DNA of 64,000 nt from Clostridia bacterium (GCA_045631485.1 JAZQUU010000028.1:241-64240); one strand, 5' to 3'. Shown: positions 3 through 56,698, numbered from the stretch's first letter. Notes: a model not told the origin generated them from the letters alone. Numbers and translations are program-made.

Positions 3-1490
3 TGTGCAACACTGACTCCTGTAAAGAAAACTGTAACCGTAAAGAGTGATGAAGCAACCACAATCGGCAATATGTCCTTTATCAGAAGTGCAGCGAATGA
101 TAAAAAAGACAATGCAAGTGCATACGATGGAACCTATTCCAGCAATAACTGGGGTAGTGATGTAAGAACCGCGACCATGATGATTGAAGTGGAAGAAACA
201 GGAACCTATGCACTTGATATCAATGCAGTTACCGATTTGACACTTGGTGGTGCATCTCCCGTTAACTTCAGTGTTGATGGTGGAGAAAAGATTACTCTTA
301 CCGCTTCTAATGCAACTGTAACCGCATTGGAAAATCCTTGGAAAACATCCGATAACTGGACTGTAAAAAATATTGCGTACAATCAGGATTTATTACTGGA
401 AGAAGGTAGCCACACAATCACATTTGAATTCCCGAAAAGAAGTGCAGGAGATGTAGTAATCTATGCATTTGATTGTGCAACTCTGACTCCTACCAACAAT
501 ATGTTTACCATCACAGGGGAAGATATCGAAACCCTCGGTAACTCATCCTTTACTTGGAGCTATGTATCTCATGGTAAAAGTGCAAACGCATTTGACGGAA
601 CATATACCAAAGTGGAAGGTGCGGGCTTAACCATTACTGCTACAAGCAAATTCTATGTAGCAAAAGCAGGTGAATATGACCTGGAAGTTTATGCTGCATC
701 CAGCATCACCAACATCAATTTATCAAATCTTGAATATCAAATTGATGAAGGTGAATCTACCACAATCAATACTGCTAATGCTACTGTTAGAGAATTGAGC
801 AATCCCTGCAGAACAGATGCTCCCTGGACAGTAAAAGGAATTAAATTGAATGACAAAATCTCTTTGGATGAAGGGCTTCATACAATTACATTTACAGTTC
901 CGAAGAATTCTAACGGAAGAACTGAAGCATATTTTGTATTTGATTGTGTAAACTTCATTCCTGAAATGGAAGACATTCAGGGAATCGAAGCAGAAGTTAG
1001 CGACTACACCTTAGCAGTAGGTGAAATTGTTGAGGTTGCTGTTACCGATACCGAAGGCAACTTAATGGAAGACGCAACCATTACTTCAGCAGACAGTAGC
1101 GTGGTATCTGTTGGTGCGGACAAAAAGTTAACAGCTGTAGGCGTTGGTAGAACTGAAATTACCGTTTCCGCAAGAAAGAACGAATATCTGCCTGAACATA
1201 CAACATCATTTGATATTTATGTAGGTAACAATGGTATTTATGTGACTTCTGTAGCGATTAACGCAGGTACAGTTGCAACAACCTTTGAACTGGACGGAGT
1301 TGATGCATCAGCTGTTGATGTATTCGTTGCAGTTTACGACAATACAGAAACAAAACTCCTTGCAGTAGATAGCAAAGCTATTGTAAATGGCACATGTTCA
1401 CTGGCTGTAGGTGAGTCTGAAGGAAAAACAGTATTATTCGTATGGGAAAAAGGAACCATTAGTCCTCTTTATATGGAAGAAATTAGATAG
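3..1490 (+). CDS. Secreted non-catalytic repeat protein (5'-partial): tandem CBM6/CBM35-like beta-sandwich modules, an Ig-like (Big_2-type) domain and a C-terminal FVW...PL domain
   Basis: The frame is open from position 3 (CATLTPVKK...) into the listed ORF at 72, so the gene starts left of the window. Modules end in 'L.EG.HTI.F...FDC..L.P'. Paralogous to 4354..6447. Confidence 0.8.
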   Translation, partial: CATLTPVKKTVTVKSDEATTIGNMSFIRSAANDKKDNASAYDGTYSSNNWGSDVRTATMMIEVEETGTYALDINAVTDLTLGGASPVNFSVDGGEKITLTASNATVTALENPWKTSDNWTVKNIAYNQDLLLEEGSHTITFEFPKRSAGDVVIYAFDCATLTPTNNMFTITGEDIETLGNSSFTWSYVSHGKSANAFDGTYTKVEGAGLTITATSKFYVAKAGEYDLEVYAASSITNINLSNLEYQIDEGESTTINTANATVRELSNPCRTDAPWTVKGIKLNDKISLDEGLHTITFTVPKNSNGRTEAYFVFDCVNFIPEMEDIQGIEAEVSDYTLAVGEIVEVAVTDTEGNLMEDATITSADSSVVSVGADKKLTAVGVGRTEITVSARKNEYLPEHTTSFDIYVGNNGIYVTSVAINAGTVATTFELDGVDASAVDVFVAVYDNTETKLLAVDSKAIVNGTCSLAVGESEGKTVLFVWEKGTISPLYMEEIR

Positions 1491-1592: not shown

Positions 1593-4337
1593 ATGAGGAA
1601 AATTTTTATTTCTATGGCTGTTATCATTTTGGCAATAATTTCACTTTTTGCAGTCAGCGTAAATGCGGCAGTTACGGAAGTGAAAAATATAGAAAATGTG
1701 GGAATATATACAGCAACTGAAAATGTAGGCTTCGAAGTTACGAGAGATAATGCAGGTGAAGAATATATTGCTTTTAAGGTATATGATATTGATGGGAACC
1801 TGATAAAAGAAAGTAGATTCACTGCGAAGCAACAAAAACAAAAATTTTCCCTCGGATATTTTAAAAATGGTTGGTATCGTGTGAAAATATTCGTAAATGA
1901 TCAGGAAGAGAATATTTTTGCATCTTTTTCAGTTGTTGATGAAAGAGATGGATTTTACTATGATTCACCCTTTGCGATTATGCACCTTGGACGATTGGTA
2001 GGTAGCAGCAAGGATACAGCTTATGCTGAGGCTTTGGCAAAATTGTCGGTAGGGACTGTTCGTACCGATGAGATTGCAGATATTCATATGAGTGCTCGTC
2101 CTTACGAAAAATACAATACCAATCTCACTAATGTTGGAATCAGACCCATGGCAACGGTATCCACGAACTATACTTATCCCAACTCAACAACCACAGGAAA
2201 CGTGGGTGGATTTACCGAGCTTTTTGATGTTTATGATGTGCATAAAACCATGGTGAAAGCATATAACGGGAAAGTTCCATATTGGGAACTGATCAATGAG
2301 CCGGATATCAATAAATCTGTAAGTGCAGATGCTTTTGCATCTTGGTATAAAGCAGCCGCAATTGGTATCAGTGATGCTCAGCCGAGTGCGATGAAATCAT
2401 TTGGTGGTTTATGCGTCACAAATTCTCAGTATTTCGATATTATTATGCAAAATGGTATTATGGATTATTCCGATACCATCAATGTTCATAGTCATGCAAC
2501 AGACAGTGCTGACGGAATCAATTACAACGGAACCTTAGCAGAGATGGGCAAGGTGTATTCTGCATTGTACGCTGATAATGCTCCGTTGTGGAGTACTGAG
2601 TCAGGTGTTAGAATGACTGTTGTTGATGGAACGAACGAGCTTCCTTCAGAGGAATCATTAAGAAGACAGGCAAGATATATGATCACTTCATTTATGGAGA
2701 CTGTCGGTGAATATGGTATTAACAAGAATTTTTGGTTTTTAACCTCTCATTATGTATCTGAAGGCCCTGAGTACGGAACATTCAGTAAAAATGATATGCC
2801 GTATCCTGCAATCAACAGTTTGAATGTTTTGACTGATAACTTAAAAGATGGAAAATTATTAGGTCGTTTGAATGGCGTTGAAGATACCAAAGGATACTTT
2901 TTTGATTGTGGAGATTATGATGCAGCAGTTATCTGGAGAACCAAAGAAGGTAGAAAGAATATCCAGTTACATGCAAATGATAATGTTACAATCGTGGGAC
3001 TTGTAGGAAATGCGAATACCAAGGTGTATTCTCCTTCCACAGGCAGAGTAAGTTTTTATGTAACCGAAGATCCGATTCTGGTAAGATTTTCTCAAAAAGC
3101 AGATTGTGAAGATTATGTTAAAACTGCATTCGAGACCAGATTACCGGTTGCACACCCGTATACCGATACTGCAGAACGTGTAGTATTGCAACAGATATGG
3201 GATCCGAAACCGGATATTTACAATGGAGTGTATTCCTTAAAAAATAATACTGTGTATACAGTAAGATGCAGAATATATAACTTTAATGATAATACAGTAG
3301 ATGGAACTTTTGGATTCCGTAACAGTGATGGAATCATTGTTTCAGGGGAAACAACAGGTGCTTTTAGTGTAGCAGGTAATTCTTATGTTGAAGAAGAAAT
3401 TACAGTGGAAGTATCAAATAACGGAACCAATTTTTCCTTTGAAAACCTAGAATTTTACGCAGAGACTAGGGCAGGATGTGAAATTGCACCAAGTATAAGC
3501 CAAGTGCGTATACAAAATGAGCAAAATACCAGCGGAGCAGATATTACCGTTATTGAAGATGCGAACTATTATTCCAGTTCCAGACAAGGAGATTACTATA
3601 GTTCACAGGTTTCTCCCAGCACAAGCAACAGTTGGATAGGTAATAGCGTGAAATATTCGGTAAGAAATTTGAAAAATTCTGATGTTCCTGCGCAATTATA
3701 TATTTATCAGTCGAACTTGACTGTTAATTCTGATAGTGAAGGTATGTATTTCAAATTTAATTGTGATACGTTCCCTTCTTCTTTCGAAAAAGCATATTTC
3801 GATGTTATGGTTTTTGGTGATGAAGGTTCGTTCTATGCAAATAACCTGTTCGAATTTAATTCTTCTACCAAAAATAAAAATGTTTTTATCCCTTGGAGTG
3901 CATTTGTTCATTCCGGTGGAAATGTGGGTATTACAGATCCGTCTAAAATCAATAGGTTTGGTTTCGGCTTTGATTTAAGCAGCTCCACAGGATATAGTTT
4001 GGCTTTTACCATCAGCGATATGGGCACCTATAAGTCTCAGGTTGCAACAAACACCACAACACTTATTAATGTTTCGGGAATTGCAGATGGTGAGGAATAC
4101 AGATTAAAGGATGCAAAAGTAGAAATCGAATCTTATGATCCCGAGAATACTGAAATCTATGTGAATTATGAGAAAATAGAGTGTGATGCCGATGAAAGCG
4201 GCGTATACAAGTTGGATTTTTCAGAATACGAACCTGGAGATTACAGTTTGATTGTGGCTGTATCCGATGAATTTAACAAAAAGAATTATAAGAAGATAGA
4301 TTTTAGTCTTATGCAGGATCTGATATATTTCAGATAG
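1593..4337 (+). CDS. Secreted clan GH-A (GH39/GH5-like) glycoside hydrolase with accessory beta-sandwich and Ig-like domains
   Basis: Signal peptide; putative acid/base motif WELINEPD and nucleophile motif LWSTESG; RBS GGGAGG. Paralog of 6444..9677. Confidence 0.7.
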   Translation: MRKIFISMAVIILAIISLFAVSVNAAVTEVKNIENVGIYTATENVGFEVTRDNAGEEYIAFKVYDIDGNLIKESRFTAKQQKQKFSLGYFKNGWYRVKIFVNDQEENIFASFSVVDERDGFYYDSPFAIMHLGRLVGSSKDTAYAEALAKLSVGTVRTDEIADIHMSARPYEKYNTNLTNVGIRPMATVSTNYTYPNSTTTGNVGGFTELFDVYDVHKTMVKAYNGKVPYWELINEPDINKSVSADAFASWYKAAAIGISDAQPSAMKSFGGLCVTNSQYFDIIMQNGIMDYSDTINVHSHATDSADGINYNGTLAEMGKVYSALYADNAPLWSTESGVRMTVVDGTNELPSEESLRRQARYMITSFMETVGEYGINKNFWFLTSHYVSEGPEYGTFSKNDMPYPAINSLNVLTDNLKDGKLLGRLNGVEDTKGYFFDCGDYDAAVIWRTKEGRKNIQLHANDNVTIVGLVGNANTKVYSPSTGRVSFYVTEDPILVRFSQKADCEDYVKTAFETRLPVAHPYTDTAERVVLQQIWDPKPDIYNGVYSLKNNTVYTVRCRIYNFNDNTVDGTFGFRNSDGIIVSGETTGAFSVAGNSYVEEEITVEVSNNGTNFSFENLEFYAETRAGCEIAPSISQVRIQNEQNTSGADITVIEDANYYSSSRQGDYYSSQVSPSTSNSWIGNSVKYSVRNLKNSDVPAQLYIYQSNLTVNSDSEGMYFKFNCDTFPSSFEKAYFDVMVFGDEGSFYANNLFEFNSSTKNKNVFIPWSAFVHSGGNVGITDPSKINRFGFGFDLSSSTGYSLAFTISDMGTYKSQVATNTTTLINVSGIADGEEYRLKDAKVEIESYDPENTEIYVNYEKIECDADESGVYKLDFSEYEPGDYSLIVAVSDEFNKKNYKKIDFSLMQDLIYFR

Positions 4338-4353
4338 AATGTGAGAGGATTTT

Positions 4354-6447
4354 ATGATGAACATAGCCAAAAAACTGTTAAGTATTTTGATGGCGTTGAC
4401 GATGATGTCATCAATGCTTGTTGTTTCAATCTATGCTGATGATACTTATGATACTGTAAGTGGTAGTGCTACTACAGTTTTCGGCAATTTATCGTTCGTA
4501 AGAAGTGCGGGAAACGATAAAAAAGATGATGCAAACGCATATGATGGTACCTATTCCAGCTGTAACTGGGGTGGTTCCATCCGAACATTGAGCAAGACCT
4601 TCTATGTGGAAAGAGAAGGAACATATGCACTGTCCTTCAATGCAGTTACAGATTTGACGTTGGATGGTGCATCACCAATGAAATTCAGCATTGATGGTGA
4701 AGAATATGTTACAATGGACAGATCAAATTCAAACGTAACAGCGTTGAAAAATCCGTGGACATCAGTAGATGGATGGACTGTGAAGAATGTTGCATACAAT
4801 GGTGAGTTTGTATTTGAAGAAGGACTTCATACATTAGAAATTGAAATTCCGAAACGAAGCAGTGGCGACGTTGTAATCTATGTATTTGATTGTGCAACGA
4901 TTACGCCGACAAATAATATTCTGACAATTGCAGGCGATAGCCCTACAACAATTGGTAATTCAGCTTTTCAATGGAATGAAACGAACGATAAGAAGAACAA
5001 CGCAAGTGCATACGATGGAACTTATTCCAGCAGTAACTGGGGTAGTGCGGTAAGAACAGCAACAGTTTCTTTTTATGTTGAAACAGAGCAAAGATATTCA
5101 TTTGATATCAATGGGGTTTTTGATTTAACCCTTAGTGGTGCATCACCTGTGAAGTTCAGTATTGACGAAGGTCAAATGATTACTCTGACGAGCTCAAATG
5201 CTACCGTGTCGAACTTAACTACTCCGTGGCAGACAAACGTTGATGGTTGGACTGTAAAAAATATTGCTTATCACGGTGATTTTATGTTGGAGGAAGGTCT
5301 TCATACTCTAACATTTGAAATTCCGAAACGAAGCAGTAACGACGTTGTAATCTATGTATTTGATTGCGTAACGATTACGCCTCCTGCGCCCAATCAGATT
5401 ATTACAGACGAGAATAATGTGCTTGAATTCGAAAGATATTATCCGTCAAAAGCTGTTGTGAGTGATGGTGCAAGTGGTGGAGAAGTTGTAGATTTTCTGC
5501 AATACAGTGCAACAGAACGTTGTATTGAAATGATTTTTGATGTGGAAACAGCAGGCGAATATCTACTTGTAATGGATGCATCTTTAGAGCAGGGGGTTTC
5601 CAGTTTCCAGGATAATCTTAGTCCTGCATTTATTTCGGTAAATGGTGGCGAAGAAATCGAAATCAGCCATAATCAGCAGGGTAATTTTACCATTACTGCA
5701 GACGCTACCTATGAAAGTCCCAACGGCTGGAGTCCATCCAGAATTACTTTGGCAAGAAAGTTTGATTTGGTAGAGGGCGAAAATTCCATAACTGTTCGAG
5801 TTGCAGCAAGAAGAGGCGGAGATATGGTCGTTGGAACATTCGACTGTATCAAACTGGTAAGAAATAAAGTAATCGAAAGTATCACACAGGATATGGGAAA
5901 TGGGCTCATCACAAGAGGAGAAACTATCCCTGTCAGAATGAAAAATCAGAACAACGAGACAGTGAATCCCGAAGATTTTTCGCAAATCACATATACCTTT
6001 ACAGATGATAATATCGCTGAGGTTCAAAACGGGGTATTATTGGCTAAGAACTACGGAAAAACAACCCTGACCATCACTGCGGTATCCAACGGTATCGCTT
6101 TGGAAGCGGAGTATGATATTTGTGTTGTTTCTGAAAAAGGAATTTGGATTGATTCTGTAGAAAAGACGGAATCCGGCGTAAAAATCAATGTTTCTGCTAT
6201 GCAAAGTTATAGTGGTGGAGATCAGTTACTGGTTGGAGTTTATGGACAAAGAGAAGGTAGAGTTACGTCTTTGAAGACAATTGCTACCGCCGCAACGTTG
6301 GCGATGGAAGCTATGGACGATAGGGAAGTGGAAATTTCTGTATCCGATGTTGAAGAGAATGACGTAATCAGAGTATTTCTCATAGATGCCGACAATTCCA
6401 TGCGTGCTATTTATACAAAGTATACTTTAGGAGGTGTTGATGAATGA
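4354..6447 (+). CDS. Secreted non-catalytic repeat protein: two ~158-aa modules, a third beta-sandwich, an Ig-like domain and a C-terminal domain
   Basis: Signal peptide; internal repeat with 474-nt period; strong similarity to 3..1490. Confidence 0.8.
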   Translation: MMNIAKKLLSILMALTMMSSMLVVSIYADDTYDTVSGSATTVFGNLSFVRSAGNDKKDDANAYDGTYSSCNWGGSIRTLSKTFYVEREGTYALSFNAVTDLTLDGASPMKFSIDGEEYVTMDRSNSNVTALKNPWTSVDGWTVKNVAYNGEFVFEEGLHTLEIEIPKRSSGDVVIYVFDCATITPTNNILTIAGDSPTTIGNSAFQWNETNDKKNNASAYDGTYSSSNWGSAVRTATVSFYVETEQRYSFDINGVFDLTLSGASPVKFSIDEGQMITLTSSNATVSNLTTPWQTNVDGWTVKNIAYHGDFMLEEGLHTLTFEIPKRSSNDVVIYVFDCVTITPPAPNQIITDENNVLEFERYYPSKAVVSDGASGGEVVDFLQYSATERCIEMIFDVETAGEYLLVMDASLEQGVSSFQDNLSPAFISVNGGEEIEISHNQQGNFTITADATYESPNGWSPSRITLARKFDLVEGENSITVRVAARRGGDMVVGTFDCIKLVRNKVIESITQDMGNGLITRGETIPVRMKNQNNETVNPEDFSQITYTFTDDNIAEVQNGVLLAKNYGKTTLTITAVSNGIALEAEYDICVVSEKGIWIDSVEKTESGVKINVSAMQSYSGGDQLLVGVYGQREGRVTSLKTIATAATLAMEAMDDREVEISVSDVEENDVIRVFLIDADNSMRAIYTKYTLGGVDE

Positions 6448-9400
6448 AGAGAATAATCTGTTTGATTCTTGTGTTTTGCATGATGCTCGCAATGTGTATA
6501 ACATCACACGCAGAAGATGAGATTGTGATTAGAGTAGAAGCAGAGAAATATTCATCAGCAACCGTTAAGGGTGGTATCTACGAGGATTCCGGGCTCAGTG
6601 AAGGAAAAACAGTTGGTTTTAACTGGGCTGCTCCCAAGGACGAAGATTACGTGTATGAATATCTGATTGATGTTCCGAAAACAGGAGTGTATGCAATTAC
6701 TGCAGGTGGTACAGAGAGAGGCTTGTCTAACACAACAGACTGGTCTGTATATGTGAATACACCGGATAACGCTCCCAGCTCTTATGTGAAAGATGGAAAC
6801 ATCAGTACAGCAAAATTGCTTCCGAGCGTATTTAAAACTTATTCTCTTGGAGAAATGAAATTAAAAAAGGGAATCAATAAACTGTACATTTCAATCAATA
6901 AAAATGACGTACAGCAAGACGGCGTGCTCATTAGTATGGTTGACTATGTGCAGTTGAAAATGAACCCCAATGCTTCATTTAAAGTCCAAACAGTTCGGTT
7001 TAAGGATAATTTTTTGGGCGTTTATGAAAATGGAACTAATGTTGAACTCAAGTTTGAATTTAACACCATAGCAGACAAAGAGAAAAAATTTAGTTTCGAA
7101 ATTGTTGACTTATGGGGCAGAAATGTAGTAGATGGTGTGTTCAGCGTAAGAAAAGGTGTTGATGAAGCAGTTCTGAATCTGGGTAAATTTCAAAATGGAT
7201 GGTACAGAATATACTTGAAAGATGAAAATAACACCGAAGTAACAAAATACCTTGCGTTTTCTGTGGTGCATCCGTTAAGCGACAGAACAGTTTTTGAAGA
7301 TACCTCTTGGGCAAGTGATATTGCGATTGAATATTCAGGACAGGCTTCTGCTCATGTGGATGATTATGCAAGAGCATTAAAACTTGCAGGATTAAATTAT
7401 GCCAGAACCAGAGGTTCTGCAGACCTTTCAGACAGTTATCCTGTGAAGGAAGCTTTGCACCAGCACGGAATCAACGAAACAGTTATGCACGATGTATCTG
7501 CTTCTATGCATGGGGTGTCAGCAAATGTGCCTCAAAGCTATATGATGATAGATGACCTGAGTAAGATTGCATACACCAGATGGAAAAATATCGCTAATGT
7601 AACAGCAGATTATGTTGAGGCGATAGAAGTGCTTAACGAAGGTGATATCGGTTTTGACGGAATTGCCGGAACAGGAGATTTACAAGCGTCCTATTTCAAA
7701 GCGGCAATGATTGGTATTTCGGATGCGAAGGTGAATCCCATTAAATCATATGCCGGATTTGCTTCTTGGACAAACTTTACGTTGACAAACACCCTTGAGA
7801 ATGACATTTTAAGCTATTCTGATATCTATAACTATCATCAGCATGGTGAAGTTGAACAGCGTACAGCTTTTGCGAAACAGTATTCCATTGCATATCAGAA
7901 GCCGGGCGAAAAACTGCTTCCTTTATGGGCAACTGAAAATGGTTTTTCACAAAATGTAGATGATAAGTCCGTGGTAAAAGACTTAAAAGGCGGAGTTCGT
8001 CATTCTATCATTTCGGCTGTAACTGCAATGAAAACCGGCACAACCAAAAACTTTTATTTCCTCACAAGGCCATATATCGAAAACAACAATAATTTTAGTT
8101 GTTGGCATGTAGATCATCTTCCTTTCCCGATGTATTCTGCTATTTCCACTTATACTTATGAGTTAGGGCAGGGTACCTATAAAGGGATTTTAGACAATAT
8201 CCCAGAGGGCGTAGAAGCATACTTGTTTGATAACGGTGAAGGTGATGATGTAATCTGTGTTTGGTCAGACCATCAGAATTACATCACCATTGATGTAACG
8301 GAACTGAAGTATGTAGATATGGTAGGTTACGAGCAAGTGATGAAGGATACTGATGGAGACGGCAAAATCAAAGTTTCCGTGTCAGAGGATCCGATTATCT
8401 TACATCTTAACGGAAGATATAGCGAAGATAAGTATTATAAACAAGAGTATGGAATCGAAAAAATCGAACAAAAGGTTTACCAGCCATACGAACGAATTGT
8501 TCTTCAGCAGTTATGGGATGAAGAACGATACAAAAATCCTACAGAGCTGAAATTTGCAAGAGAAGAAGGCTATTTGATGGAAAAAGGTGAAAGCGAAACA
8601 GTTCGTCTGAACATTTATAATTTTAACGATCAGCGAATGAGCGGAACCATAAAAACTGTAACCAATGGGCCTATTGTGCTCGATAAAGATTCATCGGAAT
8701 TTAGCATTGAACCCTGGGGACACTCACAGATAGCTTTTACATTTACAGTTCCCGAGGATGCTACTGAAGGCGCTCTGTATAACTTGAAATTCTTCGGTGT
8801 TACATCGGAAGGAAACGACATTTCTCACACATCAGCCAGATATAAAATCAAAGTGCAAGACAGAGTGATTGATGAGAAAGATATGATTTTTATGACTGAT
8901 GCAGTGAGAGCAGAGAAGTGGGATCCGGCAAACAGAGCAGCGGGATCCACAGTGAAAATCGTTAACAATCAAGAAGATAAGGTAACTTTTTGGGTTCAGT
9001 ATAATGGTGACAACTGGGCATTCCCGTTCTATTATCTGAGCGAAGAAGATAAAAAAGTTATGATCACAAGTTCAGGGATTGTTTTCGATAGAGAGTGTAC
9101 AGAGGATGTAGGTTATAAAACTTCTGTGTTCTTGTATACAGCAGATGGTAGAAATTATTATAGCGGTACAGACTCGGCAGTTTCGTACACGATTGACAAA
9201 AAACAGTTGATCTTCCCGTGGTCTGATTTCGACTTGTATCATTCACCGCTTGGCGCCTTTGAAAACAGACCTTTCAGACTGGAAGACATTACCCATATTT
9301 CTATTGGGAATAGTGGTGGTCGATTAAGCGGGCCTATGCCGGAAGTTACACTTTCAAAAGTTGCATTCTTCAATTCAGACAATCCATCTGATAAAATTCA

Positions 9401-9677
9401 GGAAGAAAAGAGTGCAGAAGTGACAGGGATAGAGGATGGAAAGCATTATCCGAAAGATACACAATTTTCTATCAATGCAAAAATCCCTGAAAAAGAGGTA
9501 ATAGAAGGCATGAGATTGGTGATCAATGACACCGAATATTTCGACTTTGAGCAGGGTGATACTTCGGTAACTGCCAAAATCGGAACACTTGAACGTGGTA
9601 AATATAATCTCTACTTCAGTTTCAGGAATAATGTTGGTAGCGTTTTTGTGAGAACAATTACCTTTTATGTAGATTAA
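6444..9677 (+). CDS. Secreted clan GH-A (GH39/GH5-like) glycoside hydrolase with an extra N-terminal CBM6/35-like module
   Basis: Signal peptide; IEVLNEGD and LWATENG motifs; shares GWYR..., ERIVLQQ.WD and FIPWS/IFPWS blocks with 1593..4337; ATGA overlap with the upstream gene. Confidence 0.7.
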   Translation: MKRIICLILVFCMMLAMCITSHAEDEIVIRVEAEKYSSATVKGGIYEDSGLSEGKTVGFNWAAPKDEDYVYEYLIDVPKTGVYAITAGGTERGLSNTTDWSVYVNTPDNAPSSYVKDGNISTAKLLPSVFKTYSLGEMKLKKGINKLYISINKNDVQQDGVLISMVDYVQLKMNPNASFKVQTVRFKDNFLGVYENGTNVELKFEFNTIADKEKKFSFEIVDLWGRNVVDGVFSVRKGVDEAVLNLGKFQNGWYRIYLKDENNTEVTKYLAFSVVHPLSDRTVFEDTSWASDIAIEYSGQASAHVDDYARALKLAGLNYARTRGSADLSDSYPVKEALHQHGINETVMHDVSASMHGVSANVPQSYMMIDDLSKIAYTRWKNIANVTADYVEAIEVLNEGDIGFDGIAGTGDLQASYFKAAMIGISDAKVNPIKSYAGFASWTNFTLTNTLENDILSYSDIYNYHQHGEVEQRTAFAKQYSIAYQKPGEKLLPLWATENGFSQNVDDKSVVKDLKGGVRHSIISAVTAMKTGTTKNFYFLTRPYIENNNNFSCWHVDHLPFPMYSAISTYTYELGQGTYKGILDNIPEGVEAYLFDNGEGDDVICVWSDHQNYITIDVTELKYVDMVGYEQVMKDTDGDGKIKVSVSEDPIILHLNGRYSEDKYYKQEYGIEKIEQKVYQPYERIVLQQLWDEERYKNPTELKFAREEGYLMEKGESETVRLNIYNFNDQRMSGTIKTVTNGPIVLDKDSSEFSIEPWGHSQIAFTFTVPEDATEGALYNLKFFGVTSEGNDISHTSARYKIKVQDRVIDEKDMIFMTDAVRAEKWDPANRAAGSTVKIVNNQEDKVTFWVQYNGDNWAFPFYYLSEEDKKVMITSSGIVFDRECTEDVGYKTSVFLYTADGRNYYSGTDSAVSYTIDKKQLIFPWSDFDLYHSPLGAFENRPFRLEDITHISIGNSGGRLSGPMPEVTLSKVAFFNSDNPSDKIQEEKSAEVTGIEDGKHYPKDTQFSINAKIPEKEVIEGMRLVINDTEYFDFEQGDTSVTAKIGTLERGKYNLYFSFRNNVGSVFVRTITFYVD

Positions 9678-9693: not shown

Positions 9694-11304
9694 ATGAGAA
9701 AGATAATATGTTTATGTCTGTCTTTGGTCTTAATGTCCTTGTCTACAACAGTTCATGCAAGCCTTGATATCATCAATACTCAAGGAAGCATAACGATAAA
9801 AGGCATGGTATCTTCAGGAGAGCTGGACTATGCAACAGAAGCAACTGTTACAGTGTTTGATGAAGATGGAAATCTTAATTACATAGATGTCATTCCTGTT
9901 TCAAAGGATGGAACCGCAGAATTTTTGTATGATAATCAGGGTAATAGCGGTGATTATGAATTTTATGTTGATATCAGCGCGTTTAATATTATCGAAAGAG
10001 CAACTCTCGAGGGCTTTGTTGGCAAAGATTATTGGGATTTGTTTATCAGCAGAATGTCAGGTTTTGCGCAAAATAGAGCTTATGACGATTTAAAAACAAA
10101 TCTGTTTGCTGAAAAAGAAAGAGGATTGCTGGAATTCGACGATTCTTTGTATAACTCATTGACAGATAAAGATACTGTTTGGGTAGTTATGTCGGAAGAC
10201 TGTGCGGCACCATATCAGAATGTAGATGAGATTCTGAAGGGATTTCAACAGGCGGTATATCTCTGCAAAATGAACGAAGCAAATGACGCTGCAGCTTGGT
10301 ATGAATTCATGAAAGAATCCCTTGGCTCTGTGATTCCTCTTGGGGAAAGCGGTATTGTAATTGATGAATATACCGTAGAAACCAAGACTGCTGTTTTGGC
10401 ATCAATTGCAAACACAGATTATTCCAAAACAACAGATGCTAGCGAGGCATTGCTGAAGGCAGGGCTTTTTAAGGCGATTGAAAATGCATATCATTATACT
10501 GATGTGAAATCGGCGGTGAAAGCTTATTACAATGCGGGATATATTACTGCAAACCCGCAAAACATCACTGAAAATCAGTATAAAAACGCAAAGGGATCCC
10601 GTGTGAACAGTTACAGCGATGTGAACAGTTTATTTGTAACTTCCGGCACTATTCCTAATGGTGGTTCCAATATTGAAACCTCATTTGGTGGCGGAGCTGT
10701 ATCCCATGCCCCTGCAGTTTTACAACCCATTTCAGAAACTGTTAGCGAGCAAAGCGGTAAGATGACTTTTTCCGATATGGAAGATGCAAAATGGGCTCTC
10801 AAACAAGTAGAGCTGCTCTATGAAAAAGGAATCATCAACGGAACCGGTGATGGCATGTACAGTCCTCATAAAAACGTTACTCGAGCTGAAATGGCAAAAA
10901 TGCTGGTGATTCTTGGTGGGTATGATATTGTTCCTTGTGATATTCCGTTTAACGATGTTGACCCCAATGCCTGGTATTATCCATATATCTGCACAGCATA
11001 TCAAAATGGAATATTTAATGGAATCAGTGGAAATGAATTTGGGGTTGACAGAAATATCACACGTCAGGAACAGGCTGTAGTACTATATCGATTGCTTGCA
11101 CAAAAGCAGGTCGAAATGTCGCAAGATTCAAAGGGTTTTGCAGATGAAGAAAATATCGGTTCATGGGCTCGTGATGCAGTATATTCTCTTCGTCAAAAAG
11201 GTATTGTATCCGGTAGAGGCGGAAATCTGTTTTGTCCGAATGAAGCGGTAACAAGAGCAGAAGCTGCTGTTTTTATAGCGAATGCTTATAGTCACATTTT
11301 ATAA
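9694..11304 (+). CDS. Cell-surface protein with three C-terminal SLH domains
   Basis: Signal peptide; three SLH repeats (e.g. FSDMEDAKWA...GIINGTGDGMYSPHKNVTRAEMAKML) after a Gly/Ser-rich linker. Confidence 0.85.
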   Translation: MRKIICLCLSLVLMSLSTTVHASLDIINTQGSITIKGMVSSGELDYATEATVTVFDEDGNLNYIDVIPVSKDGTAEFLYDNQGNSGDYEFYVDISAFNIIERATLEGFVGKDYWDLFISRMSGFAQNRAYDDLKTNLFAEKERGLLEFDDSLYNSLTDKDTVWVVMSEDCAAPYQNVDEILKGFQQAVYLCKMNEANDAAAWYEFMKESLGSVIPLGESGIVIDEYTVETKTAVLASIANTDYSKTTDASEALLKAGLFKAIENAYHYTDVKSAVKAYYNAGYITANPQNITENQYKNAKGSRVNSYSDVNSLFVTSGTIPNGGSNIETSFGGGAVSHAPAVLQPISETVSEQSGKMTFSDMEDAKWALKQVELLYEKGIINGTGDGMYSPHKNVTRAEMAKMLVILGGYDIVPCDIPFNDVDPNAWYYPYICTAYQNGIFNGISGNEFGVDRNITRQEQAVVLYRLLAQKQVEMSQDSKGFADEENIGSWARDAVYSLRQKGIVSGRGGNLFCPNEAVTRAEAAVFIANAYSHIL

Positions 11305-11315: not shown

Positions 11316-13919
11316 ATGAAAAAGATAATATCAATTTTATGTCTGATGTCCATTCTTATGCAATGTGTGATTGTTGCCCAAGCGGAAGATTCCAATACGA
11401 TTACTGAACAAATGGAAACCATTTATCAGCTTGGAATTATGGCAGATGTCAACCAGTCAAATGAGGAAGTAACAAGATCTGATTTTGCTGAAATGGTATG
11501 TAATCTTTTATATGGAAAAGCAAATATAACGGTTGCAACAAAGTCATATTATCAAGACGTTGACGTATATCACTATGCTGCAGCACCTATCCAGATGCTT
11601 ACTGAACATGGAATTACACAGGGTTATGCTGATGGTAATTTTTATCCTGAGCGCAACATTGCAGTTCACGAGGCCGTAACAATGATTTTAAGAGCGGTTG
11701 GTTATGAATTTCTGTTAAGTTCGGGAGAAAGTGTTCAGTCGATTGCATCAAAAGCAGGGATTGGAAAAGGTTTGAACTTTGGTGCAAATCTGACAAAAGA
11801 AACTGCGGCAGAAATTATTTTTGATGCGTTATATGCTGACACAATGCAAACATCCTTGACTGAAAATGTAGTCAGCAGAGGCGATATCGTTATGTCGGAA
11901 TTCCTTGGCTTGCAGTACAAGGATGGAGTAGTAGATGGTGTTTGCGGAAAGTCCTTATATGATCACTTTGTTCACGAAGGTACCGTATCCATCGATGAAA
12001 CAAAATATACAATCACATGCAAAGTGGATGAATCGTTGCTGGGAAAATATGTCAGATTCTATTACAACGAAGAAGATGACGTAGTAAGAGCAATCGTCCC
12101 CAAAAAGAACACGATTCTTGTAATCGAGGCAGATTCCATTATAGATGCCGATAATTCTAAGATTACTTACAAAACTCAAAATGACAAGGAAAAAACTATA
12201 AGAATTAATGATGGGGCAGATTTGCTTTATAACGGACTCGTCATCAACGACCTTTCTCTCTATCTTCCTCAGAATGGAGAAATTAAGCTGATTGACAGAG
12301 GAGATGACGGGAGCTATGATGTGGTTTTTGTTTCGGAATACACAAGTTATCTGGTTTCAAGAACGAGTGTGTACGATGAAAAGATTACTTTATATAACAC
12401 GCCTGAAAGCATCAACTTAAAAACGTATGACAAATACGAAATTGTTGATCAGAACAATGTTCAGTTAAAGTTGGATGCAATCACTCCGAATGTTGTTATT
12501 AGTGTATACAAAGCAGGAACCAAGCACATCAAGATTGTAAAATCTGATGAAACTGTAACCGGAATGATCACAGAGGTTTGGCTGGATGATGACGGAAGAA
12601 CAGTAATAACGGTTGGAGAACGTCAGATTACTCTGTATAGTCATTGTTATTTTGGTGGTATTTCACTTTCAGCTGGTGCAAACGTTACTGTTCATCTGGA
12701 TGCATTTGGTATCGGAACAGCTATTCAAACTGAAAAAAAGGACGATTGGCAGTTTGGATACCTTATCGCGGCAAGATATATGCCCGGATTGGAAAGTTCT
12801 GTTCATTTAAAGGTACTGACTGCAAGTGGGGAACAGAAGGTATTCAACCTTGTTGATAAAACAAAGATTGATGATGATAAAAAGACTCCTGAAGTGGCTA
12901 TCACATACTTAAATAATGCTTTTCATAATTTTGACGATGAGATTGAAGGTGGAGAAGAGTACAAGAAGGAACTCGTTACCACAAGATTGATGCGGTATAA
13001 ATCGGATGGAGATATCATCACACAACTGGATACACCCATCAAATATGGTCTTTATGAAGAAAGCAATCAACCGGAAATGACACAAAGTGATAAACTGCTT
13101 TTGAGAGTCAAAGGGAATTTATATATCCCTGAAAACAAGAGAGGGTTTAAAGCGGTTTACACGGATTACACTGATTTGCAAGGGGAAGTGTTTTACACAG
13201 AAAGCACCCCAGTGTTTGTTATTCCGACGGTGGAAAATACCGAAGCAGATGAGGAAGATTACACCGTAATTACTGGTAAAGAACTGCTCTCAACCTATGG
13301 CGAGTTTGTTTATATGTCCAGTTATTATACGGATATCAACAGTTTTGTACCGGTAGCCATTGTGGTACGAAAAGATACCTTTAAAAGTAGCGATACAAGA
13401 CTGCTTGTAGTTAATGCGATAAAAAAAGTGTGGGACGAGGATGAAGATGCAGTTGTAACTCAGATAGAGGGATATATCAACGGTTCGCTGACTGCTATGA
13501 CAGTTGATGAAAATAATAGCAGTATGTCCGTTGTAACGCTCAAACAAGGCGATTGTATTGCATATGATATGTATAATCAGAAGTTGCGACTGACTCAAAT
13601 GATTTATAGAGCAGATGGGGGAGGCACCCTTAACGACAATTATTTTTGGTCAAAAAATAATGAATCTCTCTTTAACGTATCATTCCGTGCCATCATAGGA
13701 AGAGCAGGGGCTATCAATGGTAGTTATATGCATTTAAAAATTGATAGCGAAAGCAAGATTGATGAATTGATCGAGCTTCCGAGCAACATTGCATTTTTCG
13801 ATTCGTCTAAACCTACAAAATCCATTCATATGGGAGACTCTTCAGGAATATCGGCAAACGATATTGTAATTGTTTCCTCTAGACAAGGCGTACAACAAGA
13901 TGTTATTGTGATAAAGTAA
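11316..13919 (+). CDS. S-layer-type protein with N-terminal SLH domains
   Basis: Signal peptide; SLH motif YYQDVDVYHYAAAPIQMLTEHGITQGYADGNFYPERNI; large acidic beta-rich body. Confidence 0.8.
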   Translation: MKKIISILCLMSILMQCVIVAQAEDSNTITEQMETIYQLGIMADVNQSNEEVTRSDFAEMVCNLLYGKANITVATKSYYQDVDVYHYAAAPIQMLTEHGITQGYADGNFYPERNIAVHEAVTMILRAVGYEFLLSSGESVQSIASKAGIGKGLNFGANLTKETAAEIIFDALYADTMQTSLTENVVSRGDIVMSEFLGLQYKDGVVDGVCGKSLYDHFVHEGTVSIDETKYTITCKVDESLLGKYVRFYYNEEDDVVRAIVPKKNTILVIEADSIIDADNSKITYKTQNDKEKTIRINDGADLLYNGLVINDLSLYLPQNGEIKLIDRGDDGSYDVVFVSEYTSYLVSRTSVYDEKITLYNTPESINLKTYDKYEIVDQNNVQLKLDAITPNVVISVYKAGTKHIKIVKSDETVTGMITEVWLDDDGRTVITVGERQITLYSHCYFGGISLSAGANVTVHLDAFGIGTAIQTEKKDDWQFGYLIAARYMPGLESSVHLKVLTASGEQKVFNLVDKTKIDDDKKTPEVAITYLNNAFHNFDDEIEGGEEYKKELVTTRLMRYKSDGDIITQLDTPIKYGLYEESNQPEMTQSDKLLLRVKGNLYIPENKRGFKAVYTDYTDLQGEVFYTESTPVFVIPTVENTEADEEDYTVITGKELLSTYGEFVYMSSYYTDINSFVPVAIVVRKDTFKSSDTRLLVVNAIKKVWDEDEDAVVTQIEGYINGSLTAMTVDENNSSMSVVTLKQGDCIAYDMYNQKLRLTQMIYRADGGGTLNDNYFWSKNNESLFNVSFRAIIGRAGAINGSYMHLKIDSESKIDELIELPSNIAFFDSSKPTKSIHMGDSSGISANDIVIVSSRQGVQQDVIVIK

Positions 13920-40663: not shown

Positions 40664-40737
40664 TGGAGGCGCCACCCAGATTCGAACTGAGGATCAAGGT
40701 GTTGCAGACCGATGCCTTACCACTTGGCTATGGCGCA
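40664..40737 (-). tRNA. tRNA-Cys(GCA), atypical
   Basis: Cloverleaf with CTGCAAC loop, U73 and encoded CCA; U1.C72 and C28.U42 mismatches. Confidence 0.85.
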
Positions 40738-40761
40738 ATATGAAATTGTTTTTTAGTTGAC

Positions 40762-40789
40762 AAAAGGCACAATATTCATTGTGCCTTTT
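40762..40789. terminator. Terminator-like hairpin between tRNA-Gly and tRNA-Cys
   Basis: AAAAGGCACAAT-ATTC-ATTGTGCCTTTT. Confidence 0.65.
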
Positions 40790-40795
40790 ATCAAA

Positions 40796-40870
40796 TGGAG
40801 CGGAAGACGAGATTCGAACTCGCGACGTTCACCTTGGCAAGGTGACGCTCTACCACTGAGCCACTCCCGC
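40796..40870 (-). tRNA. tRNA-Gly(GCC)
   Basis: Canonical cloverleaf, TTGCCAA loop, encoded CCA. Confidence 0.97.
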
Positions 40871-40892
40871 ATATTATGTTTGAAAAAGCTAA

Positions 40893-40968
40893 TGGTGCCT
40901 CCGGGTGGAATCGAACCGCCGACACAGGGATTTTCAGTCCCTTGCTCTACCGACTGAGCTACAGAGGC
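40893..40968 (-). tRNA. tRNA-Phe(GAA)
   Basis: Cloverleaf, CTGAAAA loop, CCA; one C.A mismatch in the T stem. Confidence 0.95.
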
Positions 40969-41010
40969 AAATGTTTGTCACGGCTCAATCTCCAAGGGAA
41001 AAAAGAAAAG

Positions 41011-41087
41011 TGGCGACCTGGAAGGGGATCGAACCCTCGACCTCTAGCGTGACAGGCTAGCGTTCTAACCAGCTGAACTACCAGGCC
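41011..41087 (-). tRNA. tRNA-Asp(GTC)
   Basis: Canonical cloverleaf, CTGTCAC loop, CCA. Confidence 0.97.
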
Positions 41088-47021: not shown

Positions 47022-47064
47022 GTTTCTTTGTTGAAAATAGAGTGATATATAGGAGGAGTACGAA

Positions 47065-50000
47065 ATGTACGAAAAAGTGTCTGCAAATTTAAACTTTGTG
47101 GAAAGAGAAAAGAAGACAGAAGCTTTTTGGAAAGAGAATAAAATCTTTGAAAAAAGTATCGACACCCGTAAAGAAGGGGAAACCTTCACTTTTTATGACG
47201 GTCCCCCCACAGCAAACGGCAAACCTCATATCGGGCACGTGTTAACCCGTGTTATCAAAGATATGATTCCCCGTTATAAAACCATGAAAGGTTACCACGT
47301 GCTTCGTAAAGCAGGTTGGGATACCCATGGGTTACCCGTTGAGCTGGAAGTGGAAAAGAAACTGGGCTTAGACGGCAAAGAACAGATTGAAGAATATGGC
47401 TTGGAACCCTTTATTAAAGAATGTAAAGAAAGCGTTTGGAAATATAAAGGAATGTGGGAAGACTTTTCCGGAACCGTTGGTTTCTGGGCAGATATGGACG
47501 ACCCCTACGTTACCTACACCAACGTTTTTATTGAATCCGAATGGTGGGCATTAAAACAAATCTGGGACAAAGGCTTGTTATACAAAGGCTTTAAAATTGT
47601 ACCCTATTGCCCCCGTTGCGGAACTCCTTTATCCAGCCACGAAGTTGCTCAGGGCTATAAAGATGTAAAAGAAAAATCTGCGATCGCAAAATTCAGGGTA
47701 AAAGGTGCAGATGATGAATAAATTTTAGCTTGGACCACCACCCCCTGGACTTTACCCTCCAACGTGGCACTTTGCGTAAACCCCGATGAAACTTATGTGA
47801 AAATTGAAACCGAAGGTGTGAAATACATCTTAGCGGAAGCTTTGGTTGCAAGCGTGATTGAAACCGAATACACCGTGCTGGAATCCTATATCGGGAAAGA
47901 TTTGGAATACAAAGAATACGAACCCCTCTTTGATTTTGCAAAACCCGACAAAAAAGCATACTATGTGGTTTGTGATCACTATGTTACCTTAACCGACGGT
48001 ACCGGTATCGTTCATATTGCACCTGCATTCGGGGAAGACGATGCTCAGGTGGGCAGAAAATATGACCTGCCTTTCGTTCAGTTGGTAAACTCCCGTGGGG
48101 AAATGACCGAAGAAACTCCCTGGGCAGGTATGTTCTGTAAAGATGCAGACAAAGAAGTGTTTATTGACTTAGATAAAAGAGGTCTGCTCTTTAAGGCTCT
48201 GCCTTTTGAACATTCCTATCCCTTCTGTTGGAGATGTGATACTCCCTTAATCTACTATGCAAGAGACTCCTGGTTCATCAAAATGACCGCGGTGAAAGAT
48301 AATCTCATTAAAAACAACAACACCGTAAACTGGATTCCCGAATCCATCGGGAAAGGTCGTTTTGGCGACTGGCTCAACAACGTGCAGGATTGGGGCGTAA
48401 GCCGTGACCGTTACTGGGGTACTCCCCTAAATATCTGGCAGTGTGAGTGCGGACACCGTCACGCAATCGGAAGCATCGAAGAATTAAAGAGCATGTCTGA
48501 TAACTGTCCCGACGAAATTGAATTGCATCGTCCCTTCATTGATGCGGTAACCATCAAATGTCCCGAATGTGGAAAACAGATGACCCGTGTGAAAGAAGTT
48601 ATCGACTGTTGGTTTGACTCCGGTGCAATGCCTTTCGCACAGTGGCACTATCCCTTTGAAAACAAAGAAATTTTCGAAGAAAACTTCCCTGCAGACTTTA
48701 TCAGTGAAGCGGTGGACCAGACCCGTGGTTGGTTCTATTCTCTGCTTGCGATTTCTACCTTGATTTTTGATAAAGCACCTTATAAAAATGTTATCGTGTT
48801 AGGTCACGTGCAGGATGAAAACGGTCAGAAAATGTCTAAATCCAAAGGCAATGCCGTTGACCCCTTTGATGCATTGGCAGAACACGGTGCGGATGCAATC
48901 CGTTGGTATTTCTATTCCAACTCTGCTCCCTGGTTACCTAACAAATTCCATAAAGGTGCGGTAACCGAAGGTCAGAGAAAGTTTATGGGTACTCTCTGGA
49001 ATACCTATGCATTCTTTGTGCTCTATGCAAACATTGATGGCTTTGATGCCACCAAATACAGTCTGGAATATGACAAACTGCCCGTGATGGACAAGTGGTT
49101 ATTATCCAAATTGAATTCCTTAACCGAAACTGTGGACACTTATTTAGGTGACTACAAAATCACCGAAACCTCCCGTGTGCTGGACGATTTTGTGGATGAA
49201 CTGAGTAACTGGTATGTTCGCCGTAGCAGAGAGCGTTTCTGGGGCAAAGATATGACTCAGGATAAAATCAATGCCTATATGACTTTATACACCGCATTGG
49301 TAACCTTATCCAAATTATCTGCTCCCATGATTCCCTTTATGGCAGAAGATATTTACAGAAACTTAGTTTGCTCCATTGATAAAACTGCTCCCGAAAGCGT
49401 GCATCTTTGTGATTTCCCCGTGGCAAACACCGCTTGGATTGATAAAGATTTAGAAGAAAAAATGGAGCAGGTGGTTGACATTGTTGTGTTGGGCCGTGCT
49501 GCAAGAAACTCTGCCAACATCAAAAACCGTCAGCCTATCGGAAAAATGTTTGTGAAAGCAGAAAATGCTCTGCCCGAATACTTCCGTGATATTATTGCAG
49601 AAGAATTGAATGTAAAAGAAGTGGTATTTACCGACAGCGTAAAAGATTTCACTTCTTATTCCTTCAAGCCGCAACTTAAAACTTTAGGTCCCCGTTTTGG
49701 TAAACAGCTTGGCGAATTGCGCACCATTTTATCCGGGTTAGACGGCATTGCCGCTATGGACGAATTGGAAACCAAAGGTACTTTGACCATCACCTTAGGC
49801 GGTAACGAAGAAGCATTAACCAAAGAGGATTTACTCATTGAATCCGCTCAGGTTCCCGGTTACGAATCCAACTCCGATTACGGCATCACCGTGGTGTTGG
49901 ATACCAACTTAACCGAAGAGCTTTTGGAAGAAGGCTTTGTAAGAGAAGTGGTTTCCAAAATTCAGACTATGAGAAAAGATTCCGGCTTCGAAGTGACTGA

Positions 50001-50178
50001 CCATATTATCGTTAGCGTTTCGGGTAACGACAAAGTGGCAGACATTATGAAGAGAAACGAAGCAACCATCAAAGAAGATGTGTTGGCGGAAGAAATCACC
50101 TACGGAACTTTGGTGGGTGAAGGCAAGCATTGGAGCGTAAACGGCGAAGAAGTTGATTTTGCCGTGAAACAGTGCTAG
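47065..50178 (+). CDS. ileS: Isoleucyl-tRNA synthetase (long, type 2-like), interrupted by one in-frame TAA at 47719-47721
   Basis: PHIGH and GWDTHGLP upstream of the stop; [16 protein letters not shown] across it; DCWFDSG and KMSKS downstream; both listed ORFs share one frame. Confidence 0.9.
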
Positions 50179-51236: not shown

Positions 51237-53312
51237 TTATTTGGTTGCAAAATCGTATTCGCATAAGGGAATCAGTTTTGTGAAATCAGACCACACAAAC
51301 GCTTTGACGCTTACTGTTTCATCGGGGATTTCGGTGGTGTGATTATCTTTGGTTACGGTATTTTCCACATCTTTTTCTTCACTAATGGAAAAACCGATGC
51401 AGTTGTTACCTTCATCAAAGAACAACAATCCCAAACGATAGGTCAGATCATTCACACCTGCATAGTTATTGAGCTTCACTTCGCAGGAAATATTTTCTTC
51501 ATCATTCTGATAAATATTTACCGCAGTGTCAACCCAGGAATAATCCGCTTTTGCATAAGTAACGGTATCGGTAACCACCTTGCCGTCTGTCATCAGTCGC
51601 AATTCATAGTCATTCATATTGCCCTGGAAGGAGAACACAAAGGAATAGTTTCCGTTATCATCCAAGGTGGTCTGTGCCACGTGACCGATTTCTTCTTTTG
51701 CGATTTTAACAGAATTCTTTTTCACCAAAAGCAAGGTAACAATGTTGGTTGTGGTGGCATCTTTTACCTGACCTTTCACCAACACCTTGCCGGTAAGCTC
51801 GTCGGTGATTTTGGTTTCTTGGTTATTGATTTCCGGCTGAGTTCTTAAATCCAGAACACGCTTGGGCACATAGAATCTGCCTTCGGAATAAATTGCCACT
51901 TCACCATTTAAATCAACGGTTTTGCCATTTAAGGTTGCAACAGACTGATTTGCTTTGATGCTTAATTCGGTATCGTCAAATGTGAATTTATCAAAGGTGA
52001 AGGTACTCTCTTCTTCATCATATTCTCCAAGATCGGTAACATCCACAAATAAGGTTTCAGTAGCCGCTTCCAGATCCAGATTCAGTAACTGACAAAGGTA
52101 GGGAGCAATCTGATAGTTTTCAATCACATAAGCATCTGCTCTTTTATCTGCGGTGTCGCCGGGGATGGCTGACAATCCTTCTAAAATATCAACACCTTCG
52201 GGGCCGTAAAACCAAACGCCGCAGTTTCTTCCGGTATGTCCACTACTTGACCAGCTAATACCTTTTGTACTGTTTTTCCCTGCCTGTGTTTCTGCAATTG
52301 CATCAGCGTATCCTTTCCAGTTTACGCTACCGTAAACAGCATCCGCATTGGGAAGATTCAATCCGCCGGTATCGTGGTCGGGTGCTACAATAACAACGGT
52401 GTCGTTTCTGCCTTTTGCATATTCCACTGCTACCTCAAATGCTGCATCAAAGGAGAGATATTCGCTGACTGCCTGAACAACATCGTTGTTGTGTCCGCCG
52501 CCATCTACCGCGCTTCCTTCCACCATCAGGAAGAAGCCGTCTTTATCGCCTTCCAAAGCACGGATTGCAGCATCGGTCATTTCTGCTAAAGTGGGTTGAG
52601 TGCTGGATAAATTGATATCAGAGGGGAATGCAACAGAGGATAAGTTCCCCCACACTCTGGTGCCGGGCTGAACATTTTCCAGCTGTTTTTTGGTGTTTAC
52701 CACGGTGTAACCTCTGTTCACAGCTTCATCAATGGTACCCCATTTTGCAGCGCCAAAGCCTACGCCTAACACAACATCAATGCCCTGATTTACAATCTGT
52801 TCGGACATAATTTTATAATTGGTTCTGGAGATGTTATGTGCTGAAAAGGCTGCCGGAGTTGCGTTGGTCCATTCGTAGGTGGTACACATACCAACTCTTT
52901 TGCCTGCCAACTGAGCAGCTTCTAAAATGTTTGCGTGGGGAACGCCATTTACGTCAACACCAACATATGTGTTGGTGGTTCTGTATCCTGAGGATAACGC
53001 AGTTCCTGATGCAGCAGAGTCTGTAATAGAGGAACTGGCAGAACGGGTTCTTTCGGTTCCCACCAGATAATCCTTCATCGCCATGGGACCTTTGGTCACT
53101 TTGGTGGAATTGGGATATAAGCCTTCGTTGAAGCCGCCGTTTTCTTTCACGCCGTTGGCAAAATCAAACAGAGCAAAACCACCGCCGTCGGGAATCATAT
53201 AGATAACATTTTTGATAACGGGCTTTTCCTCAGCAGAAACCATCAAAGGGAAGGTTGCAACTGACGAAATAATTACCATAACAGTAATCAATAAGCTTAT
53301 TATTTTCTTCAT
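51237..53312 (-). CDS. phoA: Secreted alkaline phosphatase (PhoA family) with C-terminal accessory domains
   Basis: NVIYMIPDG, ITDSAASGTA (catalytic Ser), ATPAAF, FFLMVEG, DGGGH, DHDTGG and GHTG motifs; signal peptide; extra C-terminal ~240 aa. Confidence 0.85.
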   Translation of the reverse strand: MKKIISLLITVMVIISSVATFPLMVSAEEKPVIKNVIYMIPDGGGFALFDFANGVKENGGFNEGLYPNSTKVTKGPMAMKDYLVGTERTRSASSSITDSAASGTALSSGYRTTNTYVGVDVNGVPHANILEAAQLAGKRVGMCTTYEWTNATPAAFSAHNISRTNYKIMSEQIVNQGIDVVLGVGFGAAKWGTIDEAVNRGYTVVNTKKQLENVQPGTRVWGNLSSVAFPSDINLSSTQPTLAEMTDAAIRALEGDKDGFFLMVEGSAVDGGGHNNDVVQAVSEYLSFDAAFEVAVEYAKGRNDTVVIVAPDHDTGGLNLPNADAVYGSVNWKGYADAIAETQAGKNSTKGISWSSSGHTGRNCGVWFYGPEGVDILEGLSAIPGDTADKRADAYVIENYQIAPYLCQLLNLDLEAATETLFVDVTDLGEYDEEESTFTFDKFTFDDTELSIKANQSVATLNGKTVDLNGEVAIYSEGRFYVPKRVLDLRTQPEINNQETKITDELTGKVLVKGQVKDATTTNIVTLLLVKKNSVKIAKEEIGHVAQTTLDDNGNYSFVFSFQGNMNDYELRLMTDGKVVTDTVTYAKADYSWVDTAVNIYQNDEENISCEVKLNNYAGVNDLTYRLGLLFFDEGNNCIGFSISEEKDVENTVTKDNHTTEIPDETVSVKAFVWSDFTKLIPLCEYDFATK

Positions 53313-56564: not shown

Positions 56565-56698
56565 AATAAGTAAATCCTCCTTATTTGTTTTTATATGAAT
56601 TTGATTTTTCGGTTTCAACACCGGTATCACAGATGAATGCCGGGAAGCTTAAAGCTCTGTAATGGATCACACTTACAGTCAATAATGCTTATACTATT

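Follow-up and report, generated by a model that had tools for sequence, protein, structure and literature searches.

SLH domains, sortase signals, CBM37 modules and WxL domains each serve particular lineages. The SLH domain is a helical triplet and the dockerin is a calcium-binding F-hand pair. How enzymes and cohesin scaffolds are retained at the surface of non-cellulolytic gut and rumen Clostridia is only partly understood. CBM37 of Ruminococcus albus is a module of about 100 residues that attaches enzymes to the bacterial surface; it is usually C-terminal, sometimes tandem or internal, and has been reported to be restricted to R. albus (PMC4081043). By analogy, CBM37 would be the closest functional analogue of the domain described here, which falls in the same size class, is likewise mostly C-terminal and sometimes tandem or internal, and occurs on many secreted enzymes of Oscillospiraceae. 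CBM37 replaces dockerins in orthologous proteins, and the present domain similarly alternates with dockerin in homologues of the alkaline phosphatase PhoA. The two differ in range, since CBM37 is reportedly confined to R. albus whereas the present family is widespread.

We analyzed a 64,000-nucleotide stretch of DNA from a Clostridia bacterium (GCA_045631485.1, JAZQUU010000028.1:241-64240), hereafter the window, in which an initial annotation had proposed that four secreted proteins, here called A to D, end in an unnamed domain of about 90 residues. The four reading frames and the C-terminal sequences given for them were confirmed. Our results suggest that three, and probably all four, of these tails belong to one unnamed Ig-like family, which may act as a non-covalent binding module for surface retention and not as a secretion signal. 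We assign this reading a probability of roughly 45%.

Protein A (3..1490, + strand) has lost its start to the window edge, and the remaining 495-aa frame contains CBM-like beta-sandwich repeats, a Big_2-like domain (both from weak Pfam/NCBIfam matches) and the tail (NGIYVTSV...VLFVWEKGTISPLYMEEIR; 1230..1487, +; translation checked). Its orthologue P0124 (1148 aa) carries the same type of tail. Protein B (4354..6447, +; 697 aa) consists of a signal peptide, CBM-like repeats, an HL_N-beta/Big_2-like domain and a tail (KGIWIDSV...IRVFLIDADNSMRAIYTKYTLGGVDE; 6136..6444, +) that is a probable divergent member. The four hosts had been described as otherwise unrelated, but A and B proved to be collinear paralogues with 40-51% identity across ~436 aa, and their alignment continues into the first tail strand (GIYVTSV versus GIWIDSV).

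Protein C is PhoA (51237..53312, - strand; 691 aa; Pfam PF00245, E 8e-56), in which a signal peptide, the Alk_phosphatase domain, a Cu_amine_oxidN1-like domain and an Ig-like domain precede the tail (WVDTAVNIY...VKAFVWSDFTKLIPLCEYDFATK; 51240..51536, -). This tail is a canonical member and is kept in at least 30 PhoA orthologues; an exact look-up of protein C returned no identical record. Protein D (53343..56630, -; at most 1095 aa, the likely start being the Met of MKLAKTLSL...) is encoded by the gene immediately 5' of phoA, in the same orientation, and the D-then-PhoA order recurs in the related loci L001 and L004. It comprises a signal peptide, four repeats of a CBM-like module of ~230 aa and the tail (VTVAEVSAINF...YVYVWNNIFDMFALCDTFICEF; 53346..53636, -). 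The signal peptides of B, C and D are typical, and the N-terminal parts that Pfam and NCBIfam could name are the Alk_phosphatase domain of C and, through weak matches, the CBM-like and Big_2-like regions of A and B.

The first part of the window (1-17 kb) resembles a polysaccharide-utilisation locus in that it encodes CBM-like repeats together with a sugar ABC transporter. The genes of two large secreted proteins (1593..4337 and 6444..9677, both +; 914 and 1077 aa) alternate with those of A and B and precede the genes for two SLH proteins and the sugar ABC transporter. Neither of the two large proteins matches a Pfam family above threshold, and residues 52-104 of the former contain a sub-threshold Por_Secre_tail-like Ig stretch. 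SLH domains (PF00395) are confined in the window to the proteins at 9694..11304 and 11316..13919 and are absent from the tails. The SLH protein at 9694..11304 has an N-terminal Ig-like domain (residues ~30-86) with a VTVFDEDGNL hairpin; this domain is similar to the Ig domain located before the PhoA tail and has a weak match to the N-terminal half of the tail profile (E 0.08-0.1). Elsewhere in the window, ileS (47053..50178, +) contains an in-frame TAA at 47719-47721, just before a conserved motif; the gene may have become a pseudogene, or the stop may stem from an assembly error or be read through. A cluster of four tRNA genes (40667-41087, -) accounts for the only Rfam matches above the gathering score in the window.

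Aligning the four tails directly, the check proposed with the initial annotation, was uninformative: they are pairwise 15-21% identical, and MAFFT places them out of register. Queried with only the C tail, a word-indexed search found no homologues, and an HMM built from 25 PhoA-orthologue tails finds only C and misses A, B and D. Comparisons among shallow orthologue-group profiles with hhalign gave P values of 0.02-0.56, none of them significant, and thus the relationship between the tails is visible only with broad profiles. The tails of PhoA homologues (61 of the same layout among the 120 best homologues) form at least five divergent subfamilies, and a joint MAFFT alignment brings these and the tails of A, B and D into a single, consistent register. 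In leave-one-family-out comparisons with hhalign, the E-values were 2.4e-7 for A, 3e-7 for C, 5.6e-4 for D and 1e-6 to 2e-9 for other PhoA subfamilies, while 13 controls, made up of reversed families and of Ig or CBM-like domains next to the tails, ranged from 0.019 to 0.3.

Leave-one-family-out hmmsearch was too weak (E 0.3 for A and 0.05 for D), so we adopted profile-profile comparison together with an independent profile. The latter was built from 118 domain copies taken from the top matches, after removal of copies with a BLASTP E<1e-6 to the window tails, and was run on 637 ORFs from the window and from related loci. It recovered C (E 1.3e-10), A (8e-7; residues 411-492 of the 495-aa frame) and D (6e-5), as well as the D orthologues in L001 and L004 (2e-5 and 1.7e-4) and two tails from locus L002 that were never in training (6e-14 and 5e-8). 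A second hhalign comparison gave 1.3e-10 for A against the rest of the family and 1.1e-9 for D, the latter with a target set that contains the D orthologue P0250. Judged by the broad-profile hhalign results and the independent-profile E-values, the tails of A, C and D are copies of one domain family. The pattern that all four tails had been proposed to share thus holds for A, C and D by broad profiles, with B as a borderline case.

The tail of B had been noted as more divergent than the other three, and it indeed has Ile in place of the conserved Trp and Ala in place of the conserved Pro. It is probably a strongly diverged member of the family that lost both residues. We consider it unlikely that the B tail is an unrelated Ig-like domain whose likeness to the others reflects only a common beta-strand pattern. 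Such an origin would agree with the missing near-invariant Trp and Pro, with the failure of leave-one-out hmmsearch to detect B, and with its hhalign value of 0.034 against the first broad profile, which is at the level of the controls. However, the independent profile aligns B end to end and in register (E 0.013) and ranks it first after the accepted members, the next unrelated ORF following at 0.084. When the B family was compared with a profile of 159 copies, hhalign returned a P value of 2.4e-4, again in register, against 0.07-0.3 for reversed controls. The strand order predicted for the B tail is identical to that of C, and the collinear alignment with A reaches the first tail strand; the position of the tail in a paralogue of A and its predicted fold thus also support membership.

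The domain spans about 95 residues and is predicted to be a seven-stranded Ig-like (E-set) beta-sandwich. With the C-tail alignment, AlphaFold2 produced a model with a pLDDT of 83 and six confident strands, the last ~17 residues being of low confidence with a weak seventh strand. The B-tail alignment gave a model with a pLDDT of 86, whose seven strands follow the order and spacing seen in C. Foldseek searches of the PDB with both models retrieved only generic Ig-like or FnIII-like domains (TM ~0.5-0.64), among them accessory domains of GH2/GH3 enzymes, ApaG, BsuPI and the carbohydrate-binding domain of Wzt; the best E-values were 1e-3 to 4e-3. Since the E-values reached only 1e-3 to 1e-2 and the identities 6-18%, the resemblance to the E-set Ig-like domains of GH2/GH3 enzymes, ApaG and BsuPI is at the level of fold only.

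At the sequence level, the core motif reads A-x-Y-D-x-x-G-x-L ... K-x-x-x-W-x(5-8)-P-[LMV]-C, and the longer consensus ...v.l.N...(h)(h)(h)A-x-Y-D-x-x-G-x-L-(h)...K-x-(h)-x-W-x(5-8)-P-[LMV]-C-x(7-10)-end; the residue-level form is ...v.l.N...vi.A.YD.nGkLi.vk...vK.m.Wds...m.Plc...ti. Trp and Pro are near-invariant and are separated by 5-8 residues, and the protein ends a median of 10 residues past the Pro. In the motif test, A has AVYD/FVW/SPL, C has LFFD/FVW/IPL, D has ARYS/YVW/FAL (the last within FALC, where Ala replaces Pro) and B has GVYG/FLI/RAI. We also considered the ~10 residues past the Pro as a separate linear motif and rejected this, because the segment forms the seventh strand in the B model and is also present in internal copies.

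The tail domain had been described as belonging to no named family, and this still holds for Pfam, NCBIfam and PDB sequences. Neither Pfam nor NCBIfam matched the last ~100 residues of A, B, C or D, and a profile search of PDB sequences gave no match to the tail family. For 43 tails collected in an alignment without B (A4), Pfam at E<=5 returned no consistent family, and the only NCBIfam match was a sub-threshold one to FxLYD_dom (E 0.05) in 2 of the 43. Dockerin (PF00404) and SLH (PF00395) profiles did not match the tails either, and the all-beta structure predicted for the tail differs from the dockerin. To compare CBM37, we used one example, the R. albus 7 xylanase WP_013483737.1, listed as GH11-CBM22-GH10-CBM37 in Table 5 of PMC4081043; it was located with a GH11 query, and a GH10-like bait did not recover it. 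Three tail-family HMMs gave no match to its C-terminal module, which has a different, fn3-like motif pattern and thus, for this one example, does not group with the tail family.

A search with A4 against 1.84 billion representative proteins yielded 1,232 clusters at E<=1e-3, of which 38 reached E<=1e-10. One match, P0141 (1119 aa, built of ~57-residue repeats, YITVMYWHGTRTCPLHTN), accumulated 72.8 bits from 16 short stretches; it is a repeat artefact and not a family member, and the 1,232 clusters therefore include some false positives. The profile searches indicate that the tail domain is a previously unnamed and widespread family, common on large secreted multidomain proteins and frequent in gut-type Clostridia. 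A scan of genome contigs yielded only three loci, and the contigs related to the window are labelled Clostridia or Eubacteriales. The hosts are uncultured Clostridia, labelled Eubacteriales, Oscillospiraceae or Ruminococcaceae, together with the cultured Monoglobus pectinilyticus. The latter encodes a clear member (E 1e-17) annotated as a 'hypothetical protein' and a second copy within a protein whose name reflects only its GH3 domain; we found nothing relevant in the literature on Monoglobus surface proteins.

The domain had been called strictly C-terminal. It lies within 20 residues of the C-terminus in 114 of 142 top-match proteins (80%) and is N-proximal or internal in the other 28 (20%). 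It is a recurrent unnamed module on diverse signal-peptide proteins, as the initial annotation had it, and usually their last domain. The non-terminal class mostly has the order signal peptide, Ig domain, tail domain and then a DUF4886, GDSL or metallophosphatase catalytic domain. Eighteen of the 142 proteins carry two or three copies (domain E<1e-4), mostly as a terminal tandem.

These arrangements bear on the earlier suggestion that the tail is a secretion tag like the C-terminal domain (CTD) of T9SS substrates. A sorting signal for a dedicated machinery, whether of the T9SS CTD type or of the sortase-substrate type, would fit the mostly extreme C-terminal position and the short distance between the Pro and the protein end. 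T9SS CTD, FlgD_ig and FxLYD_dom are also, like the tail, Ig-like sandwiches of 80-100 aa that are often terminal and contain an h-h-Y-D-x-x-G-x-h hairpin, while the K-x-x-x-W...P-[LMV]-C half is specific to the tail family. Because the h-Y-D-x-x-G hairpin is common to the first half of the tail, a remote kinship with Ig domains of the FlgD_ig/FxLYD type is possible. FlgD_ig and Por_Secre_tail overlap one partial profile match, in P0182 only.

However, the tandem, internal and N-proximal copies argue against a secretion signal, unlike the T9SS CTD, which is a single copy at the extreme C-terminus. Por_Secre_tail (PF18962) matched neither the tails of the four proteins at E<=1 nor the 43 tails at E<=5, and the tails contain no LPXTG motif or hydrophobic anchor. 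In the B model, the residues past the Pro are the last beta-strand of the domain itself. The hosts are Clostridia, a class not known to have a T9SS. A dedicated sorting signal is thus highly improbable, and a binding or surface-retention module is the more likely of the two.

The nature of the proteins that carry the domain was examined in a census of the 112 best matches of at least 200 aa, a set biased to the subfamilies behind the query profile, which derive mostly from PhoA homologues. In none of these full-length matches did a Pfam family cover the tail. The cargo is diverse and includes DUF4886, Metallophos, GDSL lipases, alkaline and purple acid phosphatases and BspA-type LRR_5 proteins, together with cohesin, Laminin_G_3, Flg_new, GH10, GH141 and C-type lectin domains. 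It is mostly not carbohydrate-active. Cohesin is the commonest Pfam family (17 of 112), whereas SLH and dockerin each co-occur with the tail domain once.

This composition also bears on whether the tail could be a carbohydrate-binding module that aims enzymes at dietary or host polysaccharide and not at the surface of the producing cell. The tail is found on proteins of the polysaccharide-utilisation-like locus of the window and, in some matches, together with GH10, GH3, GH141_M or CBM96. Its conserved Trp and Tyr/Phe residues and its tandem copies are typical of CBMs, and cohesin plus CBM is the layout of a primary scaffoldin. However, most of the cargo (phosphatases, metallophosphoesterases, LRR adhesins and M23-linked cohesins) lacks a polysaccharide substrate, and this speaks for retention at the surface rather than targeting to a substrate. 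In addition, the tail is matched by no Pfam CBM family, and the R. albus CBM37 example remained unmatched. We therefore regard polysaccharide targeting as quite unlikely.

The PhoA homologues provide a further comparison. The tail ends 61 of the 120 best homologues, and the same terminal position is taken by Cu_amine_oxidN1 'stalk' domains in 23, by SLH domains in 6-7 (from the motif and precomputed Pfam) and by a type I dockerin in one; co-occurrence of these domains with the tail is very rare. Another unnamed C-terminal end, ...S.LLCDWE...G.VL..., is found in 11 of the 120 (P0066, P0080, P0081, P0083, P0089, P0100, P0102, P0106, P0111, P0115 and P0117) and is neither the tail nor an SLH, dockerin or stalk domain.

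Some proteins of ~250 aa consist of nothing but a signal peptide, a cohesin and the tail. One of their genes lies directly 3' of a gene for an M23 peptidase with a cohesin and a dockerin. In architecture, these proteins correspond to an anchoring scaffoldin whose anchor is replaced by the tail. Locus L010 (5433-17281) carries a gene cluster with RepA_N, ParA and recombinase genes on its flanks. The products of this cluster are, in order, a cohesin protein, a Cu_amine_oxidN1 protein, a Peptidase_M23+fn3+Big_2+cohesin+dockerin protein, a signal peptide-cohesin-tail protein, a 291-aa protein and a 1759-aa RHS/YD-shell toxin-like protein. The cluster has the appearance of a cassette for cohesin-dockerin display with a link to interbacterial antagonism.

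Binding or retention is the reading with the most support, and a surface attachment or docking role is plausible by analogy with these known modules. The alternation with SLH, dockerin and Cu_amine_oxidN1 ends in PhoA homologues speaks for retention, as do the minimal cohesin-tail proteins, one of them beside a dockerin protein, and the near absence of SLH and dockerin from tail-bearing matches. Tandem copies are typical of avidity-based wall-binding modules, and the terminal duplication of the tail points in the same direction. P0265, with two internal copies and C-terminal SLH domains, nevertheless implies that the domain cannot be solely an anchor, and together with the N-proximal class it argues against an exclusively terminal one.

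The same N-proximal and internal positions, and the co-occurrence with SLH, would be expected if the tail were a structural Ig-like spacer or cap that serves folding, stability or protease resistance and has no specific ligand, its C-terminal bias merely reflecting the mode of domain addition. The generic E-set fold, the non-binding Ig domains of GH2/GH3 enzymes among the top PDB matches and the low conservation outside the possible core residues are also in line with this. However, 80% of the copies are terminal and duplication occurs specifically at the C-terminus; in PhoA homologues, the tail and known anchoring modules can take each other's place, and a mere spacer would leave the minimal signal peptide-cohesin-tail proteins with no second function. 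On balance, we hold a purely structural role to be somewhat improbable.

We then propose a model for the surface-retention reading. The tail would be a non-catalytic binding module that holds exported enzymes, LRR adhesin-like proteins and cohesin scaffolds at the cell surface, through non-covalent attachment to a wall polymer or a surface protein. It would thereby be the functional counterpart of the SLH, dockerin or stalk domains of homologous proteins, and would not serve as a secretion signal. In the window, this domain ends A, PhoA and D, and probably, as a strongly diverged copy, B.

It is tempting to speculate further that the tail represents a new class of non-covalent anchoring in gut Clostridia and forms a cohesin-tail display system, although we consider this extension doubtful. 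If true, cohesin-tail scaffoldins would keep phosphatases, esterases and LRR adhesins, as well as enzymes with a dockerin, attached to the wall, and such a display would serve lineages without sortase- or SLH-anchored scaffoldins.

Together, we rate the tail domain as belonging among the Ig-like accessory or binding modules of secreted Gram-positive proteins. Ending half of a large phosphatase family, paired with cohesins and spread over more than 1,000 clusters without a name, it is a concrete candidate for another retention system. As the family is present in the cultured M. pectinilyticus, the question of retention can be addressed by experiment. At minimum, the family merits an entry in the domain databases, so that its hosts would lose their 'hypothetical' annotation.
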